Origin: Marinicella sp. | GTDB lineage: Bacteria; Pseudomonadota; Gammaproteobacteria; Xanthomonadales; Marinicellaceae | Assembly: GCA_965230295.1 (NCBI GenBank) | Contig: OZ246001.1 | Location: forward strand, 3,296,001 to 3,360,000 | Length of the DNA stretch: 64,000 nucleotides | Reading direction: 5' to 3' | Part shown: positions 8,412-49,683 of the stretch, piece by piece | How the letters are laid out: each line of letters opens with the position of its first letter | How positions within the stretch are numbered: the first letter of the stretch is position 1 | Translations under genes and position numbers: made by a program | The notes under the pieces: model-generated | What the model was told of the DNA's origin: nothing | Database searches by the model: none | The model's input: the letters and a program-made list of their open reading frames with translations, nothing else

Positions 8412-10439
8412 TTATGGACTGTTGCCATCAAATCCGTCTTTAAAGATGGGGCATTCTGGTGGGGTATTGGGTTCTGACACCAAAATGACATCATCTATGG
8501 CTGCTTCAATGATGCTGCCATTGTTGGTATCTTGGGCAATGAAACGGATTTGAAATTGATTGGTGTTGTTGACAAAGTTTGCCACACGAAATTCTTGATA
8601 AACCCATTCTGCAGCTACACCATTGCTGATGGTTTCTACGGTGGTCCAGTTGCCACCTGCATTGTCAGAGACCTGAACCACGAACGTATCATCGCTGTTG
8701 CCGTTATCACCCCACCAGCGCCAGTATGATATGTGTGCTTCGGTACTGCTGGCATCTAAGATGGGTGAAACCAAACGGGTCGCACCGCCATCAACGTCAG
8801 TATTACCGGCAGCATTACCCGTGACATAAGCTGACCCTGATGAATCTGCATCCCATGGTGGGTCTTGTCTGCGACCAAAACCAGCAGGTACGCCTCGTTC
8901 CCAGGATCCGGCGGTTAAACTGGGATCATCATCAACAGTCCATCCCTGATCAGTCTCGAAGGTGTCTCTGAATGTGTCATTGAATGAATTACCCACTCGC
9001 CTGATGAAACGCCTGTTGGCAGAGTTATCTGCGGTAAACGGGTGATGAACAATGCCACCACTGAGGGTTTCCACATCGATTTTAAAGGTCACTTCACTGG
9101 CACAGGCTGAAGCAGGTAGAGTGGCTTCATAGGTGGCTGCTGCTACTGGTGATAACGGAATGGTTACATCACCATTGCCATAATCATAAATCAAGCTGGC
9201 TGAGTTGAAACTGGCCGGTAAGTTATCACGATCAAGGATGTCAACCTGGAAGCTGGTTCCTGACGTAGGTATATCCTGTGCAATGGGTGTAACTTGTTCG
9301 ATCCGAATCTGAGGTGGACCATTGAGGCAAATGCCAATGGGGTTAGCCAGGGCATTGAGTAATCCTGTATTGGCCAATGAAGTGCCATTATTGGCACCGC
9401 CACCAGCAGAACAGCCCGCATTGGTGTGAATACCAATCGCAGTTCCTGTTCCTTCAACTTCGACTGCAGACCCTGAATTACCACCTGTGGTATCAACCGT
9501 GTATTGTAAAGAGGTACCCGATACACCTGTCAGCTCACCGGTGTGTGTGGTTTGTGTTTGGCTCCAGTCTTGCGGAGTCCCTTGGGTACCATCGATCGTG
9601 CCATAGCCGGTGATCCGTATGGTCTCTCCTCCCGGAGTAGCAGGAGGGGCGGCTAAAATAAAGTTGTTGCCTTGCGCTTCAAAAGGTGTCAATCGGGTTT
9701 GGCTGTTGGGAAATGCACCAAAATAAGCCCAGTCATTACCAATACCAGTTAAATCCCATTGCACCGAGCTGAAATCAATGGGGTATTGATTATCTGGAGA
9801 TGCGTGGTTGGTGGATCCATTGGGGTTAGACAAAGGCACATCAAACTCAACCACACTGGCAGCCGCATCGAGGTTACCTTGGGCGTCTTCTACGCAGTGT
9901 CCGGCAGTCAGAAAGCAGCCCTGAACATCGTCAATCAGCCAAGCTGTACACCCAATAGGCATGATGCGAGCCGTCCTTGCATCTGACGCCAGTGTGCGAT
10001 CATCATCAGCACCACAGATTGAACGTGAGTTATCAGTGGGCGGGCTTCCCACTTCACCCACACTGATTTCATCGATTCTGATCCTGGCTGTGTTGCCTGG
10101 ATCACTCAGTAACTCAATTTTGACTGCATCACCGTTGAAATAGGCACTGGTGTTGCGCCACTCTTGTAAGGTTTCGGCATCATGGGTTTGAACAGCGCCA
10201 TCCAACAATGAGGTGATCCTTATGGAAGAAGTTTGACCTAAAACTGCCGTTGAAAAATGTAAGCGAATCCAAGTGGCACCGTCTACTTTAATCTCCTCAT
10301 CAAAAATAACTGCATGTTCTGTACCGAAGTTTTTGACTACCCCAGAGTCCACTTCAATGTCCACCAATCTTGAGGGCAATGGGTTCTTAGCGAATACGCT
10401 TGATGACACCATCAAACAGGTCAAAATGATCAATTTCAT
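8412..10439 (-). CDS. Secreted trypsin-like (S1) serine protease with C-terminal jelly-roll (MAM-like) domain and IFKDGFD tail
   Basis: Signal peptide, LTAGHC, NDWA, GGNSGS catalytic motifs; C-terminus ...CPIFKDGFDGNSP. Confidence 0.85.
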   Translation of the reverse strand: MKLIILTCLMVSSSVFAKNPLPSRLVDIEVDSGVVKNFGTEHAVIFDEEIKVDGATWIRLHFSTAVLGQTSSIRITSLLDGAVQTHDAETLQEWRNTSAYFNGDAVKIELLSDPGNTARIRIDEISVGEVGSPPTDNSRSICGADDDRTLASDARTARIMPIGCTAWLIDDVQGCFLTAGHCVEDAQGNLDAAASVVEFDVPLSNPNGSTNHASPDNQYPIDFSSVQWDLTGIGNDWAYFGAFPNSQTRLTPFEAQGNNFILAAPPATPGGETIRITGYGTIDGTQGTPQDWSQTQTTHTGELTGVSGTSLQYTVDTTGGNSGSAVEVEGTGTAIGIHTNAGCSAGGGANNGTSLANTGLLNALANPIGICLNGPPQIRIEQVTPIAQDIPTSGTSFQVDILDRDNLPASFNSASLIYDYGNGDVTIPLSPVAAATYEATLPASACASEVTFKIDVETLSGGIVHHPFTADNSANRRFIRRVGNSFNDTFRDTFETDQGWTVDDDPSLTAGSWERGVPAGFGRRQDPPWDADSSGSAYVTGNAAGNTDVDGGATRLVSPILDASSTEAHISYWRWWGDNGNSDDTFVVQVSDNAGGNWTTVETISNGVAAEWVYQEFRVANFVNNTNQFQIRFIAQDTNNGSIIEAAIDDVILVSEPNTPPECPIFKDGFDGNSP

Positions 10440-11893: not shown

Positions 11894-12098
11894 AAAATAA
11901 GTGACTCAGGGTGTCATATTTGGCTTCTCAGGACGCCTTTATGATTAAATAAATATTTGTTTCAGTGATTCTGAGTTCAAAATAGCCACCTGAATTAAGT
12001 TTGCTGTTTAAAGTTCAGGTATTCCAACTATAATACCCACCTAATTCCGGGCCATGTGCTCAGAGCTTACCCCAACCTAAATATTGATGAGAGATTAT

Positions 12099-15000
12099 AT
12101 GCTTGATATCCGATCTTCTGCGCTTAATAAAATAAGTGCCTTGGCTTTACTTTTGTTGACCAATTGGGCCTATGCCGGTAACACCACATGTGATTCTATT
12201 GCCAGTGGCAACTGGAGCGATGCCAGTACCTGGTCTTGTAACACAGGTTCTGGTATTCCTGTGTCAGATACTAATGTGAACATTCTCAATACCCACACAG
12301 TTTTGTTGGATATCGATGCCAGTGTAACTCGGGTGATTGTGAACCCAGGTGGTGACTTGGATGTGGCCGCCAGTCCTGGTGGACTGGCTTTGTCATGGAT
12401 TTCTAATTCGAGTGACATCAGTGCGGCCAATATTGATTTATTTGGTGATTTCACGATCAATGCCTTAACAGGATCTCCCATTGATTTGATCTTGGGTGCA
12501 GTTGACGGTCCGTTTGATTTAAATCTCAATGCAGAAGGCAATACGCTTATTAATGGCCCATTAGGCGCTATTACACCTCTGAATGGTTTTGATACTGATC
12601 AAGATGGCACCATCACAATTGCTCATACAATCACCACAAATTTTAGCCAGTTTATTGATGATGATGCAGTGATTATTAGTGGTGATGTAACCTTATCAGG
12701 GCTTGGTATTAACATCAGAGGTACTGTAGATGCCGATGTGTTAGCCAGTGACCGAAATTTAGCCATTATTTCAACAGGTGGATCACAATTCATCAACACC
12801 GTTGGTGGGATCACACCTTTGAACTCATTGGTAGTTGATGCCAGTTTCATGACCCTAGAAGCTGATGTGAGTACCACTGAGACGCAAACATACATTGCTG
12901 CAACTCGAATCAGAAGTGCTGTCAACTTGACCGGAACCATTGTCAATTTCAATGGTGAGCTGAATTCAGAATCAGTCACTGCAAATGGATTTGATTTAAC
13001 GGTGACAGGGGATGCCAATTTCACTTCTGATTTGGGCACATTGACCCCAGCTGCATTTGGTGTGATCAACTTGAACAGCATCACAGTCTCAGGAAATGTA
13101 GATTTTAATGTATCTGGTGATGGTGCAGACATCATAACTGATGGCGATCAAGCTTTTAATAGCACGTTAACCGCTCAAACTGATATCAAGTTAAGCAGTC
13201 GAAACTCAGGAGACATTACTTTCAGGGATGACATCTTTGCAATAGGGCAGCATTTAACCATCAATACTGCTGGAACCACCATGTTTACCGACAATGTGTT
13301 TGGCGCTCCTGTCAATGTAGAAGCTGCCAGTATCACCACTGATGCAGCAGGAGTGACTCGAGTTACTTTCAATGCCGACTTCCAGCTGACCAGTGATGAC
13401 ACACCTACCACGTTCAATGATGAATTGCGATTGGGGCCAAGCACCCGTTTTACCCTCAATCAAAATGGTGCAGCCGATACGGTGTTTAATGACGATGTGA
13501 TCCAGATCAGTGGCGGTTCAAAACTGTTGACCGTGAATGATGTCAGTGGTCAAACCATCTTCAATGGATCGGTCAATCTGGGTGAACTGATCACCAATGA
13601 CGGTTCAGGTGATGACAGCACAGTCATCAATACGCCAACGATGACCATCAACCAAGCGGTCTCTAATTCAGGGATCATGACCTTCAATGATCCGGTTGAA
13701 TTGATGCAAGATGTCACCTTCACAGAAAACAACAGTGGCCAGATCATCTTCAACAACACCTTGGATGAGGCGGATGGTGCTGGCAGTGTTGATGTTGTCA
13801 TCAATTCAGACAACGAAGTGGTTTTAGGGCCCGTAGGTACTGTCAGAAGCATCAATTCCATCACCACAGACGCTGGCGGTTCAACCACTCTGAATGGTGA
13901 TGTGTTGGGTAACACGCCCTTTAACTTCAATGATGCTGTTACATTGGGACAAAACTCACGTGTTTCTGCTGAAGACGTGGCGTTTAATGGCGCAGTTAAC
14001 CTACAAACCTTTGATCTAACAGTCAGCGCCTTAGACGCCAGTATGGATGGTGTCATCAGTGGTTCAGGTAACCTGATCAGTCAGGTCTTTAGCGAATTGC
14101 GCTTGACCAATGAGAACACCTACACTGGAGAAACCAGAATCACTGAAGGCAATTTGAGCTTCATTGGTGCCATTTCGAACAATCACATCATCAACTCGAG
14201 TGCCATCATTCTTGAAAATGGCACAACATTGACACCTAATAATTTCACTTTCACCTACAATTTGCCCAATGGGCAAACCCTGTCTGGAGAAGGAACTGTT
14301 AATGACTTTTTCGTCGCTGACTCAGGTTCGATAGTCAGTCCTGGCAGCAGTCCTGGTATCCTGAATTTTGCCAGTTTGTCCATGGCTACTGGCAGCACCT
14401 ATCAAGTAGAAATTGAGGGCTTAACACCTGGCAGCGGTCATGATCAGTTGGTTGCCAATTCTGTGCAGTTGGATGCATTTCTTCCTGGTGGTGCCACTTT
14501 AGAATTGACCCTCAACAGCAACATCACTTTGAATGATGAATTGGTGGTGATTGATAATCTGGGGGTCTCTCCAGTCATTGGTACATTTAATGGATTGTCA
14601 GAAGGATCAATGGTAACGGCTTCCAATGGCACCACTTTCACCATCAGTTATGTGGGTGGTGATGGCAATGATGTGGTATTGACCGGAACTTGTTCCAGTG
14701 CCATCACAGTTACCAATGGAGCAGACAGCGGTGCAGGATCATTTAGAGAAGCAGTTTCGGACATTTGCCCAGGTGGCACCATTGATTTTTCTGGTAATAC
14801 CAGTGTCACATTGAACAGTGAAATTTTGATTGATAAAACCATCAATATTGATGGTACCGGATTCAATGTTGTGTTTTCAGGTAACAGCGCCAATCGCGTG
14901 TTCTATGTTGGAGCCACAGGTGAATTGAACCTGCAATCAGTATTTGTGGTCTTGGGATTCAGTGCCAATGAAGGTGGTGCCATTTTCAATGAAGGGGCCT

Positions 15001-17039
15001 TGTCTGTTATTGAAAGCACCTTTGAAGCCAACTCATCAGCCAGTAATGACTTGGCTGGGGGTGCTATATTTAATGCCAGTACAGGCTCATTGGACATAGA
15101 AAGCAGTACATTCCTCAGTAATACAGGCATTCGCGGAGGAGCGATCTTTAACAGTCAAAATGGCGCCGATGAAGGTGCTGTTGTGATCAGGAACAGTACA
15201 TTTGCCAGTAATGGTAACAATGCTTTGGAAGGCGGAGCCATCAATAACCGCGGTGTGATGATCTCAACCAACAACACCTTTGCCAACAATGGCGGAGCTG
15301 GAACAAACGGTGGTGGTGTGTTTACCTGGGATGGAGACACCACGTTGATCAACACCATAATCGCTGACAGTCCCAGTGGCTCCGATTGTTTCATTGCAAA
15401 CAACAGTGTTGAATCGAATTCGAATAGCTTGATTGAGGGTGGCAATTGTGACGCGGCCTTGACTGATGATCCACAGTTATTGGCATTGGATTTATATGGT
15501 GGCAACACCTTAACCATCGGGTTGAGCTTACAAAGTCCGGCTGTGGACGCTGGTAGTGATGCTTTATGCACCACTGAGGATCAACGCGGTTTGCCAAGAC
15601 CTCAATTGGAGTCATGTGATATTGGCGCCTATGAAACTGAATTTCTAGGCATCATTCATGTGAATCAAAATCCAACGCCAGCTCTTTCTGGTACCTGTTT
15701 ACCAGGTGCCTGTTGGTCCAACGCTTATACAAATTTGCAGGATGCCATAGCTGTGGCCGGTCCGACTTCGGAGATTTGGGTGGCCGAAGGCGTTTACCTG
15801 CCTGATGTTGGACAGAATCAAACAGATGATGACCAAAATTCAAGCTTCGTTTTACCAGAAAGTGTGTTGCTTTTTGGTGGCTTTGATGGCTCTGAAACCG
15901 TTCGAGAACAACGAGACTTTATCAATAACGTCACCATTTTATCCGGTGATATTGATGAAAATGATGTCAATTTGGATGGTAACAACACAGCCGAAACCGT
16001 GGCTGATATCATGGGCCAAAATGCATTCAATATTCTTGAAACAACAGGAGACTCAGTGGTGTTGGATGGCTTTACCATCACTGCAGGGTTTGCCAATGAT
16101 AAGCCAACGAACAGCCGACGTGGTGGTGGTATCAATTGTTCAGGAACGCAAAGTACCAATAACGTGTTTGCGAACAACTTGTGGATTGCTAACTGGGCCG
16201 ATAATAGAGGTGGTGCATCGTATTCATGTCATGGTACCTTCTTAACGTCTCAATTCGTGGCCAACCAATCGGGTGATAATGGAGGTGCAGTTTACGCCGG
16301 TTTTGCAGCCAACCTGGAACAAGTCAGTTTCATCGGCAATGCAGCATCAGGCCAAGCTGGGGCATTGTATGCAGGGATGCTGAATATTGATCGAGGGTAT
16401 TTTGCAGCCAACCAAGCAGGCACATCAGCTGGTGCAGTTTACTCATTCATTGAATCGACCATCACCAACACATTGTTCCGTGGTAATGCTGCAGTTTCTA
16501 ACGGAGGAGCTCTTGAACTTGGAGGTCAAAACGAGTTGGTCAATGTAACTTTAACCGGCAATGTAGCAGGTCAATCAGGTGCCGCCATTTACAGCCAAAA
16601 TGGTCCCATCAGGCAAGGTGGAGACGGCATAGATTTGTCCAATTCCATCATCTGGAATAACCAGGATAACTCTGGTACTGGAACCATTGGAGCGGGTATT
16701 ACCAGTGACATCATACCTTCAGTCACCAACAGCCTGTTCCAAGGCTCAGGTGGCAGCACCAACTGGAATGGGGCTGCAGGCACTGATGGTGGTAACAACA
16801 TCGATCTGGATCCTGAGTTTGTTTTGGATGTGATTCTCTTTGATGTGCCAACGGTATTTGGTAACGCACGCTTAACACCTGGGTCTGTAGCCATAGGTTC
16901 AGGGAATAATAACTTAGTGACCACACCATTCGATTTAGATGGCAATGGCCGCATCAATGGTGGCACCGTTGATATGGGTGCCTATGAATACAGTGACTTG
17001 ATCTTTAAAGATGGTTTTGATCAAAACAGCGGGAAATAA
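12099..17039 (+). CDS. Giant secreted beta-helix/adhesin-like protein with autotransporter-associated repeats, GGAI repeats, two choice-of-anchor-Q-like domains and IFKDGFD tail
   Basis: Signal peptide; ISGSGNL...NTYTGETRITEG; SPGSSPG; GGDGNDVVL; GGAI repeats; DQRG..CDIGAYE and DLDG..VDMGAYE; no beta-barrel. Confidence 0.85.
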   Translation: MLDIRSSALNKISALALLLLTNWAYAGNTTCDSIASGNWSDASTWSCNTGSGIPVSDTNVNILNTHTVLLDIDASVTRVIVNPGGDLDVAASPGGLALSWISNSSDISAANIDLFGDFTINALTGSPIDLILGAVDGPFDLNLNAEGNTLINGPLGAITPLNGFDTDQDGTITIAHTITTNFSQFIDDDAVIISGDVTLSGLGINIRGTVDADVLASDRNLAIISTGGSQFINTVGGITPLNSLVVDASFMTLEADVSTTETQTYIAATRIRSAVNLTGTIVNFNGELNSESVTANGFDLTVTGDANFTSDLGTLTPAAFGVINLNSITVSGNVDFNVSGDGADIITDGDQAFNSTLTAQTDIKLSSRNSGDITFRDDIFAIGQHLTINTAGTTMFTDNVFGAPVNVEAASITTDAAGVTRVTFNADFQLTSDDTPTTFNDELRLGPSTRFTLNQNGAADTVFNDDVIQISGGSKLLTVNDVSGQTIFNGSVNLGELITNDGSGDDSTVINTPTMTINQAVSNSGIMTFNDPVELMQDVTFTENNSGQIIFNNTLDEADGAGSVDVVINSDNEVVLGPVGTVRSINSITTDAGGSTTLNGDVLGNTPFNFNDAVTLGQNSRVSAEDVAFNGAVNLQTFDLTVSALDASMDGVISGSGNLISQVFSELRLTNENTYTGETRITEGNLSFIGAISNNHIINSSAIILENGTTLTPNNFTFTYNLPNGQTLSGEGTVNDFFVADSGSIVSPGSSPGILNFASLSMATGSTYQVEIEGLTPGSGHDQLVANSVQLDAFLPGGATLELTLNSNITLNDELVVIDNLGVSPVIGTFNGLSEGSMVTASNGTTFTISYVGGDGNDVVLTGTCSSAITVTNGADSGAGSFREAVSDICPGGTIDFSGNTSVTLNSEILIDKTINIDGTGFNVVFSGNSANRVFYVGATGELNLQSVFVVLGFSANEGGAIFNEGALSVIESTFEANSSASNDLAGGAIFNASTGSLDIESSTFLSNTGIRGGAIFNSQNGADEGAVVIRNSTFASNGNNALEGGAINNRGVMISTNNTFANNGGAGTNGGGVFTWDGDTTLINTIIADSPSGSDCFIANNSVESNSNSLIEGGNCDAALTDDPQLLALDLYGGNTLTIGLSLQSPAVDAGSDALCTTEDQRGLPRPQLESCDIGAYETEFLGIIHVNQNPTPALSGTCLPGACWSNAYTNLQDAIAVAGPTSEIWVAEGVYLPDVGQNQTDDDQNSSFVLPESVLLFGGFDGSETVREQRDFINNVTILSGDIDENDVNLDGNNTAETVADIMGQNAFNILETTGDSVVLDGFTITAGFANDKPTNSRRGGGINCSGTQSTNNVFANNLWIANWADNRGGASYSCHGTFLTSQFVANQSGDNGGAVYAGFAANLEQVSFIGNAASGQAGALYAGMLNIDRGYFAANQAGTSAGAVYSFIESTITNTLFRGNAAVSNGGALELGGQNELVNVTLTGNVAGQSGAAIYSQNGPIRQGGDGIDLSNSIIWNNQDNSGTGTIGAGITSDIIPSVTNSLFQGSGGSTNWNGAAGTDGGNNIDLDPEFVLDVILFDVPTVFGNARLTPGSVAIGSGNNNLVTTPFDLDGNGRINGGTVDMGAYEYSDLIFKDGFDQNSGK

Positions 17040-47133: not shown

Positions 47134-49683
47134 ATGAAAATCATGACTTTTGTCAGCTGTTTGTTCATGCTGTTTATATTTCAAGCGACACCCAGTTCAG
47201 CAGGCGAGGGCTTGCCGGATGGGGATGGTCCTTGGATCGTGTTGAATCATTACCAAAATAAAGACGATGTTTTGGCACTCAAAGAAGACTATGATTTGTG
47301 GAAAATTGACGAAAAGAATAAGACAGTCTTGATGATGATTGATGAGCCGGCAGCTTATCAAGAACTATTGGATCTTGGGTTCTCACTCAAATTACACGAC
47401 GAATTGATGAGTCAGCAAGCCGAGTTAATGAAGCAAAAGTTCCTTGGGAAAATGCCAATCACTGGCTTTCCTTGTTACCGCACAGTGGCTGAAACCTATG
47501 CGGCTATGACCACCATGCAAAACGATTATCCAGATTTGGTCACATTGATCGATATTGGTGATTCTTGGCACAAAACTGAGCCTGGAGGTTTGGCTGGTCA
47601 TGACATTCAAGTGGTGAAAATCACCAATGCCAATGTGGTTGATCCCAATAAGCCCATTTTATTTGCCATGGGTTCCATTCATTCACGTGAATACCCACCT
47701 GCTGAATTGGTGACTCGTTTTGGTGAACATGTGCTGTCAAATTACGGCTCAGACCCTGACATAACTTGGTTGGTTGACCACCATGAAATTCACTTGCTGA
47801 TGCAGGGTAACCCTGATGGTCGCAACATCTCTGAAAATGAAGCTTCACCCAACCAACGTAAAAACCGCAATGAAAACCATTGTTTTGGGGGGAATCAACA
47901 AGGCGTTGACATGAATCGGAACTTTGATTTCAGATGGAATCAAGGCACTGGTTCCAGTGGCAGTGACTGTAGCGAGGTCTTTCGAGGCGACTCAGCAGTC
48001 AGTGAACCGGAAACCACTGCGATTAATAATTACATCCAAACCTTATTTCCTGATCAAAGACCGGATGACCTGGTGACCGCTGCACCACTGGATAAACCAG
48101 GGGTGTATTTGGATATCCACAATGTGGCGGAGTTGACTTTATTTCCATTTGGTTTTTCTAACAGTGCAGGTCAGGCACCTAACCATGATCAATTGATGAC
48201 TTTGGCCAGACGCATGTCATTCTTTACTGGCTATCGCCCAGAACAATCCAATGCGTCACTGGGTGGTGCCGATGGTGCATCTGATGACAATGCTTATGGT
48301 ACTTTAGGTGTTGCTGCCTATACCATTGAGCTTGGCGAGGGAGGTTTTTACTCCAGTTGTTCTGCATTTGAAAACACCATTTATCCTGATAACCTTGAAG
48401 CCAATATATATGCTGCTAAAGCATCGCGAGCGCCTTATTTAACTGCATCAGGACCTGATGTGATCGATTTGCCACAGAATGTGATTGAAGTTTCAGCTGG
48501 CAATTCTTTTGCGGTCAACGGAACAGCGACAGACACTCGCTTTAATGCATCTAACGGTACTGAGCCCACCCACAACATCACTGCTGTTAAAGCCTATATA
48601 GGCACCCCTTCATGGGTGGGTGGTGCTGTGGCCATCGACATGAATCCAACCGATGGTAATTTCAATAGCAGCGTAGAAGCTTTTAACGGCAGCATAGACA
48701 CAACGGGTTTGGCTGAAGGCCGATACACCGTTTGGTTTGAAGCCACTGATGATGGTTCTGTTGGGGCCTTCAATGGTATCACCGGTGTGCCTGCAGCGAT
48801 TTTTGTTGATGTGGTCAATCCAGCTAATATAGGTACACTTGATGGAACAGTGAGGGATTTATCTGACAATGAAGCTGTCGAACAAGTGTTGGTAGAGTAT
48901 GATGGCAATCAAACATTTACAGACAGTTCAGGTCAATACTCCATACAAACCTCAGCCACAACCGCGGATCTGATGTTTTCTAAGGTGGGGTATGTATCCA
49001 CAAGCATTTCATCAGTTGATGTTTTGGCTGGTATGACAACCACCCAGAACACGTTCTTAGCGCCCTCCTGTGAAACTATATTCTTAAATGATGATGTTGA
49101 AGCTTACAGTGTTATCGGGGAAGCCATCAGTGCAGGCTGGTCTTTGGTGAATGGATCTGGTGCCAGTAACGACTGGCGGGTCGAATCTGGAGATAATCAC
49201 ACGGTTGGTGGAACCAGAGCATTCGTGTCAAGTAATGTAGGTGAAGTTTCTGATAAGAGTCTTGTCACACCAGCCGTAGCGATCGGCGAACAAGCTGAGT
49301 TGACTTTCTGGCATAAACACCAATTTGAATCCAATAATGATGATTACGATGGTGGTGTGATTGAAATCAGTACCAATGGAGGCAGTAATTGGACAGACTT
49401 GGGCAATGACATCACTCAAAATGGTTACAACGGTACCCTCAGCTCCGGTTTCAGTAATCCATTGGGAGGCAGACCCGCTTTTGTGGACAGTTTGGGTACG
49501 TTTACTGAAGTCATTGTTGATTTATCATCATACAGCAACGAGACTGTTTTAATCAGGTGGCGCATGGGCACAGATTCTGACATATCTGCTGGAGATTGGA
49601 AAATAGATGACATCAATCTGATCGCATCTGGCGATTGTCCTGGGCCAATAGACATCATTTTTAAAGATAATTTTGATAATTGA
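47134..49683 (+). CDS. Secreted M14 zinc carboxypeptidase with regulatory-like and jelly-roll domains and IFKDNFD tail
   Basis: IHSREY, NPDG, GVDMNRNF, SEPET, DIH, TIELG; C-terminus DIIFKDNFDN. Confidence 0.9.
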   Translation: MKIMTFVSCLFMLFIFQATPSSAGEGLPDGDGPWIVLNHYQNKDDVLALKEDYDLWKIDEKNKTVLMMIDEPAAYQELLDLGFSLKLHDELMSQQAELMKQKFLGKMPITGFPCYRTVAETYAAMTTMQNDYPDLVTLIDIGDSWHKTEPGGLAGHDIQVVKITNANVVDPNKPILFAMGSIHSREYPPAELVTRFGEHVLSNYGSDPDITWLVDHHEIHLLMQGNPDGRNISENEASPNQRKNRNENHCFGGNQQGVDMNRNFDFRWNQGTGSSGSDCSEVFRGDSAVSEPETTAINNYIQTLFPDQRPDDLVTAAPLDKPGVYLDIHNVAELTLFPFGFSNSAGQAPNHDQLMTLARRMSFFTGYRPEQSNASLGGADGASDDNAYGTLGVAAYTIELGEGGFYSSCSAFENTIYPDNLEANIYAAKASRAPYLTASGPDVIDLPQNVIEVSAGNSFAVNGTATDTRFNASNGTEPTHNITAVKAYIGTPSWVGGAVAIDMNPTDGNFNSSVEAFNGSIDTTGLAEGRYTVWFEATDDGSVGAFNGITGVPAAIFVDVVNPANIGTLDGTVRDLSDNEAVEQVLVEYDGNQTFTDSSGQYSIQTSATTADLMFSKVGYVSTSISSVDVLAGMTTTQNTFLAPSCETIFLNDDVEAYSVIGEAISAGWSLVNGSGASNDWRVESGDNHTVGGTRAFVSSNVGEVSDKSLVTPAVAIGEQAELTFWHKHQFESNNDDYDGGVIEISTNGGSNWTDLGNDITQNGYNGTLSSGFSNPLGGRPAFVDSLGTFTEVIVDLSSYSNETVLIRWRMGTDSDISAGDWKIDDINLIASGDCPGPIDIIFKDNFDN

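Follow-up and report, generated by a model that had tools for sequence, protein, structure and literature searches.

A nine-residue tag on exported Marinicella proteins matches the strand missing from a single-copy jelly-roll protein, its candidate acceptor

In the 4.0-Mb genome of Marinicella sp. (G000), 130 of 3,375 proteins, or ≈ 4% of the proteome, match the nine-residue tag D-x-I-F-x-[DNS]-[GDSN]-F-[ED] at their C-terminus, as scored with a PSSM for this genome. Sequence comparison identifies the tag as strand 1 of a jelly-roll domain that is Cip1-like and uncatalogued. The same genome encodes an exported copy of that domain without exactly that strand, so the peptide likely plugs enzymes into an adaptor. 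We consider it quite likely that the tag is a donor strand that completes this single exported, headless jelly-roll acceptor and thereby keeps enzymes and adhesins that bear the tag on the cell surface. We also lean towards the broader reading of a general display pathway, in which more than 100 cargoes would each present a donor strand of nine residues that completes one Ca2+-clamped jelly-roll adaptor, tied by a dockerin/cohesin/exosortase anchor, with tag dialects that differ between lineages and a related longer form found in other phyla.

The window, which is the whole stretch of 64,000 nucleotides analysed here, encodes three tagged proteins, identified by their open reading frames and a domain scan. 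The largest is an exported cargo of 1651 aa with a PATR repeat and choice-of-anchor Q domains (12084..17039, plus strand). Its tag, DLIFKDGFD (16995..17021, plus strand; PSSM score 29.6), is the predicted donor strand and is followed by five residues and the stop codon. An exported trypsin-like protease of 675 aa with a MAM/choice-of-anchor J domain (8412..10439, minus strand) bears the tag CPIFKDGFD (8427..8453, minus strand), in which Cys replaces the leading Asp and which lies four residues before the stop. The third is an exported M14 carboxypeptidase of 849 aa with a choice-of-anchor J domain (47134..49683, plus strand); a single residue separates its tag, DIIFKDNFD (49651..49677, plus strand), from the stop. 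Thus, the original prediction of IFKDGFD at 17001-17021 (plus strand) and 8427-8447 (minus strand) and of IFKDNFD at 49657-49677 (plus strand), on three exported proteins with different domains and without a C-terminal beta-barrel, was borne out. The PATR repeat was the only match of that kind and no barrel family was found on the three proteins, for which reason an autotransporter (T5SS) was rejected. A T9SS C-terminal domain was likewise rejected, since no CTD family of ∼ 70 aa matched any of them.

Scanning the last 19 residues of all proteins with a regular expression retrieved 95 of the 3,375 genes, as compared with a mean of 0.35 and a maximum of 3 in 200 shuffles of the tails. A PSSM trained on these 95 tails gave 146 matches genome-wide, 130 of them within 15 aa of the C-terminus, a zone that holds 4.6% of positions, and 16 internal. 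Using a crude test, we detected a signal peptide in 98 of the 130 tagged proteins versus 804 of the 3,245 others; twin-arginine leaders were present on two tagged proteins. The expected enrichment at C-termini and among signal-peptide proteins was thus obtained. The motif had been described as C-terminal and seven residues long. It is real and genome-wide, but the leading Asp, present in 74 of the 95 regex matches, makes it nine residues long, and it is not strictly terminal: it forms the very end of 70 of the 130 proteins, and a few tags lie directly behind a signal peptide or at domain boundaries. As predicted, no transmembrane helix follows it (0 of 130 after residue 70); this and the 70 proteins that end at the motif led us to reject a tripartite C-terminal sorting signal. 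The tagged proteins fall into 64-76 sequence groups. A homologue search with a 90-aa tagged protein as query returned no matches.

Two further features of this proteome were noted. Three large proteins (G000:C1:1502239-1506363, 3172793-3178705 and 1421560-1424421) combine an internal tag with similar tails of ∼ 88 residues ending in D-x-D-G-D-G. At G000:C1:2409700-2410783, an ECF sigma-like gene adjoins a gene for a small membrane protein whose tail consists of three degenerate tag-like repeats, and this membrane protein might sense free acceptor.

To what extent the tag behaves as a separable element can be seen in the M14 family. The tails of 120 homologues comprised 67 with the tag, 15 of a YLPLV type and 38 others; that is, the tag occupies a slot in which homologues bear other tails, as had been supposed. 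Shortened homologues that are devoid of the last domains still keep it, and both Phe residues are at least 90% conserved in 69 homologues. In the AF2 model of the M14 carboxypeptidase the tail is unstructured, with pLDDT falling from 65 to 49, and the fold-back onto its own domain that would have spoken against a tag was not seen. The YLPLV-type tail looks like an uncatalogued tag in the same slot; it is found in homologues P0073, P0081, P0084 and others, some of them named Chloroflexi or Anaerolineae.

The candidate acceptor was recognized by homology. When metagenomes were scanned for the long motif form, 98 matches were readable, namely 84 terminal ones, 4 cut by contig ends and 10 internal ones, and several of the internal motifs open a domain of ∼ 200 residues. 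This domain is homologous (BLAST E 2e-14; hhalign probability 99.6%) to a single-copy protein of 248 aa with a signal peptide, encoded in G000 outside the window (G000:C1:1802183-1802929 = L389:1477-2223, minus strand). The homology begins after the motif, the first strand being absent, and the best tag score within the acceptor itself is -0.2. No family was matched in Pfam and NCBIfam scans of the protein, and a PDB sequence search with its profile gave nothing convincing. This headless jelly-roll protein is our candidate for the cognate partner that the original prediction had proposed to find by profiling.

Searching a library with the acceptor profile yielded 2,045 representatives at E ≤ 0.001. 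In the best 150 matches, the start of the domain scored at least 12 with the G000-tail PSSM in 105 of the 127 copies that are fused and in none of the 77 that stand alone, 32 partial matches having been left out. An acceptor fold that lacks the strand supplied by its partner, as donor-strand pairing demands, is therefore seen at the sequence level. The intact first strand, in rows picked by regular expression, has the consensus D-L-I-F-A-D-G-F-E, equal to that of the tag. All 30 of the first orthologues have the same layout of signal peptide, Cys, Trp and domain without tag strand, and so have nearly all of 65 further loci; the exceptions are two paralogues, the copy in G172 and a few cut or split copies. 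In the two paralogues (L487:892-2070 and L488:1011-2114) a tag-like strand stands behind the headless domain and is followed by another domain, an apparent self-complementation and an apparent circular permutation. One headless protein, with the source label Vicinamibacterales, has no Cys. The codon adaptation of the G000 acceptor gene, computed with 31 reference genes that are mostly ribosomal, reaches the 97.9th percentile, which fits the need for a stoichiometric partner. Two loci are unusual: in L511:1408-2883 (G060) the acceptor is fused to a long, distinct C-terminal region that had no Pfam match and in which a dockerin is absent, and L509 (G107) carries a tandem pair of 273-aa ORFs at the acceptor locus, with a second acceptor fragment on another contig.

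In the Atlas, an acceptor homologue groups with Cip1-like and polysaccharide-lyase-like jelly rolls; it resembles Cip1 with a feature score of 0.95 and a TM of 0.69, a likeness below the bar for naming. The Pfam scan of the acceptor was empty, PF21340 (Cip1-like) included. In Cip1, strand 1 spans Ile2-Asp4, and the ligands of Ca2+ include Asp206, the side chain of Glu7 and the carbonyl of Asp5 (PMC3764139). By analogy, the G/D/S/N/R position of the tag would correspond to Asp5, its last E/D to Glu7 and the invariant Asp of the acceptor to Asp206, a mapping taken from this fold likeness and not from an alignment. It would explain why the first of these positions is variable, the last E/D is fixed and the acceptor Asp is invariant.

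If tag and acceptor act together, they should occur together. Strict tags in named genome records belong almost all to Marinicella, Dokdonella, Rudaea, Ahniella, Aquimonas and similar genera or to unclassified organisms, among the 122 matches listed. In 298 other Gammaproteobacteria the tag is near background (14 genomes with 1-2 matches, versus 7 control matches), and over 221 genomes of the order its distribution is patchy. The loosest pattern matched all 20 genomes of family f8, with many chance matches in housekeeping genes, and was therefore left out of the counts. Two profile rounds over the 221 genomes placed the acceptor gene in 133 (of these, the match in G172 is weak and probably another domain, the copy in G178 is split and that in G194 is partial). 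Tags were present in 129 of these 133 genomes versus 16 of the 88 acceptor-negative ones. Of the remaining four acceptor-positive genomes, two have Ser/Ala variants of the tag, and G171 and G214 are without real tags. The acceptor-negative set consists of 72 untagged genomes, 4 with 1-2 matches and 12 that are tag-rich; all 12 are fragmented assemblies of 110-820 contigs. Retesting five of these recovered one gene cut at a contig end, and the other four remained empty. Within families the pattern recurs: the 8 acceptor-positive genomes of f12 are its 8 tag-rich ones, none of the other 23 being tag-rich; the only one of 32 f2 genomes with an acceptor is the only tagged one; and in f8 tags occur in 10 of 10 acceptor-positive versus 3 of 21 acceptor-negative genomes. 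Related genomes are not independent, and we therefore give no P value for this co-distribution.

The acceptors of relatives suggest how the complex could be anchored. They end in a dockerin-like module except in families f3 and f12 and most of f1; Dockerin_1 matched six of nine acceptor proteins scanned, three of them over the cut-off. A cohesin-like gene lies downstream in 45 of 98 acceptor loci, and the next long downstream gene ends in an IPTL-like membrane tail at 17 of 18 dockerin-type loci and at neither of two dockerin-less loci. Among 17 downstream anchor proteins, TIGR04174 was over the cut-off in five and choice-of-anchor D was found in nine. Cohesin matched 5 of 12 such proteins, one over the cut-off, with at most one cohesin stretch each; both dockerin and cohesin scores in the relatives are mostly near or below cut-off. 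Many loci carry in addition a small stand-alone cohesin-like gene between the acceptor and anchor genes (e.g., L526:9603-10070 and L523:8595-9077), for which Pfam gave no match in three of three scanned. The acceptor of G171 has, by eye, a direct IPTL-like membrane tail, which matched no family. From these modules we predict that the adaptor is surface-tethered in the relatives. The G000 acceptor has neither a dockerin nor an anchoring tail, no cohesin was found in G000, and the domain scan gave no dockerin on the three cargoes of the window. Neighbouring the G000 acceptor are genes for a sulfotransferase and a glycosyltransferase, and similar glycan genes flank several orthologues; our guess is that a sulfated surface glycan made by these neighbouring genes is the anchor.

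G000 has two type II secretion systems, and the one with a PDZ-GspC (T2SS-B) tracks the tag: at least three tags are present in 127 of 137 secretin-positive versus 4 of 84 secretin-negative genomes. In tagged lineages the gspCDE(F) genes with PDZ GspC are syntenic, and in one same-genus pair G109 has both T2SS-B and tags and G094 has neither. The model of GspC confirmed the domain layout only. Strand addition by the tag to GspK was rejected, both G000 GspK proteins keeping a C-terminal segment of their own, and GspK-B was not found in three of three g26 genomes searched. The second system, of the xps type (L123, G000:C1:855496-868615), adjoins an exosortase H-associated gene and ABC-transporter-like genes, and its locus also encodes an unannotated exported protein of 473 aa with codon adaptation at the 99.9th percentile; it is possibly an S-layer export locus.

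The association with T2SS-B, together with G000-type acceptors devoid of an anchoring tail, is what one would expect if the tag completes the headless protein but the latter does not serve display: at least where acceptors are without a dockerin, it would be a periplasmic chaperone or an adaptor for export, passing cargo to the T2SS. We regard this as unlikely, since in most families a dockerin-like tail ends the acceptor and a cohesin-like IPTL anchor gene follows it, one acceptor copy has the direct IPTL-like tail, and acceptor and tags persist in f8 genomes without T2SS-B.

A different division of labour, in which GspC (PDZ) or the N0 domain of GspD of the ancestral T2SS-B reads the tag directly, as a linear type II secretion signal, would likewise account for the co-occurrence, the synteny and the G109/G094 pair. 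The PDZ domain selects some T2SS substrates in Vibrio (PMC12369372). The genomes without T2SS-B secretin speak against a direct signal. Among these 84, ten have acceptor and tags, none has an acceptor without tags, four have tags without an acceptor (1-2 matches each) and 70 have neither, so that the acceptor is present in 10 of 14 tagged genomes that lack the secretin; of the ten, G153 has GspK-B, and the acceptor of G172 is the doubtful one. G149, of family f8, has several real terminal tags, yet neither GspD-B nor GspK-B was found in it.

Genus g8 provided a natural variation on the tag. In 14 of its 17 genomes Arg replaces the Gly of the tag in 5-44 matches each, whereas no other genome has more than five. 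That unrelated genes have shifted together suggests a single reader. GspD appeared to be a candidate: all 49 other genomes have Gly93, whereas 13 of the 14 with the Arg dialect have a different residue there. However, 16 Arg tags coexist with an unchanged Gly93 in G206, and every T2SS-B subunit of g8 is acid-shifted; we therefore demoted the Gly93 change in GspD N0 as confounded by a general acid shift. On the acceptor side, an Asp two residues before the invariant Asp is found in 12 of 13 g8 acceptors versus 3 of 72 others, a charge match that comes from a single lineage with acceptors of higher overall acidity (14.7% versus 8.9%). The g8 GspK proteins (L184, L185, L229-L233) are without three otherwise conserved acidic residues, at positions 84, 158 and 167, which possibly form the calcium site of GspK. 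A directly read secretion signal also leaves unexplained why a co-distributed protein should lack just the strand that the tag equals, and we consider such a signal quite improbable.

We find it scarcely credible that the tag was left behind, without a function, by a C-terminal domain since lost, or that it belongs as an ordinary strand to the domain before it. Its homology to strand 1 of a genuine domain would fit such a reading, but it is kept on 64-76 unrelated groups, its two Phe residues are conserved in an unstructured tail, and a whole genus has shifted one of its positions in concert.

The tag had been proposed to be a short secretion or surface-attachment peptide that needs no membrane segment. 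This is supported, and the evidence favours docking over a secretion signal. In the display mechanism that we propose, cargo and acceptor would meet after export by Sec or Tat, and the tag would insert as a donor strand and so complete the sheet of the acceptor. Ca2+ would clamp the pair via the last Glu/Asp of the tag and the invariant Asp of the acceptor. The complex would probably exit through the PDZ-GspC type II system where this is present, and in the relatives, where cohesin-like, Ig-stalk and IPTL-CTERM-like sequences are encoded, dockerin-cohesin binding may tie it to an exosortase-anchored stalk. If true, this is bacterial protein sorting without a membrane anchor or a processing enzyme on the cargo, and cohesin-dockerin and IPTL-CTERM modules would gain a function in Gammaproteobacteria. 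The proposal names a single candidate receptor for the tag, and it predicts a minimal, position-independent peptide-catcher pair that would be useful for protein display. We found no description of the motif or the system in searches of the openly accessible literature.

Several known systems share elements with the proposed one. In chaperone-usher pili, a beta-strand from one chain completes the sheet of another. Archaeal cannulae are joined in a similar way, with Ca2+ reinforcing the joint (bioRxiv 10.1101/2024.12.30.630787). Pili and cannulae are polymers of like subunits, whereas here a single acceptor would receive strands from many unrelated cargoes. The combination of groove and donor strand on one subunit was not found in the acceptor (tag score -0.2, as above), and since the acceptor is without a donor strand of its own, no polymer is expected. 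Closer in geometry is PilC/PilY1, a large exported protein of which ∼ 10 terminal residues complete the sheet of PilK (PMC13533445); that case involves one adhesin and a pilin partner, the present one ∼ 130 cargoes and a jelly-roll acceptor. The Cip1-like or polysaccharide-lyase-like jelly roll (PF21340; PMC3764139) resembles the acceptor in predicted fold and in an N-terminal acidic-aromatic Ca2+-binding strand, but the acceptor lacks that first strand and has no Pfam or NCBIfam match. The tripartite signals (PEP-CTERM, IPTL-CTERM with exosortase H (TIGR04174), GlyGly-CTERM) occupy the same C-terminal slot, and an IPTL-type tail ends the putative anchor of the relatives; the tag differs in having no transmembrane helix or basic tail and in occurring also N-terminally or internally. 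Finally, the arrangement is reminiscent of the cellulosome (PF00404, PF00963), in which many enzymes are collected on an anchored scaffold by way of a small module, and dockerin- and cohesin-like sequences, mostly near or below cut-off, lie in the acceptor operon of relatives. The cellulosomal hallmark of dockerins on the enzymes and a multi-cohesin scaffoldin was not found on the three window cargoes and the anchor proteins scanned, and neither module was found in G000. Here the enzymes bear a nine-residue strand, the dockerin sits on one adaptor, and a single cohesin-like domain lies N-terminally on the anchor.
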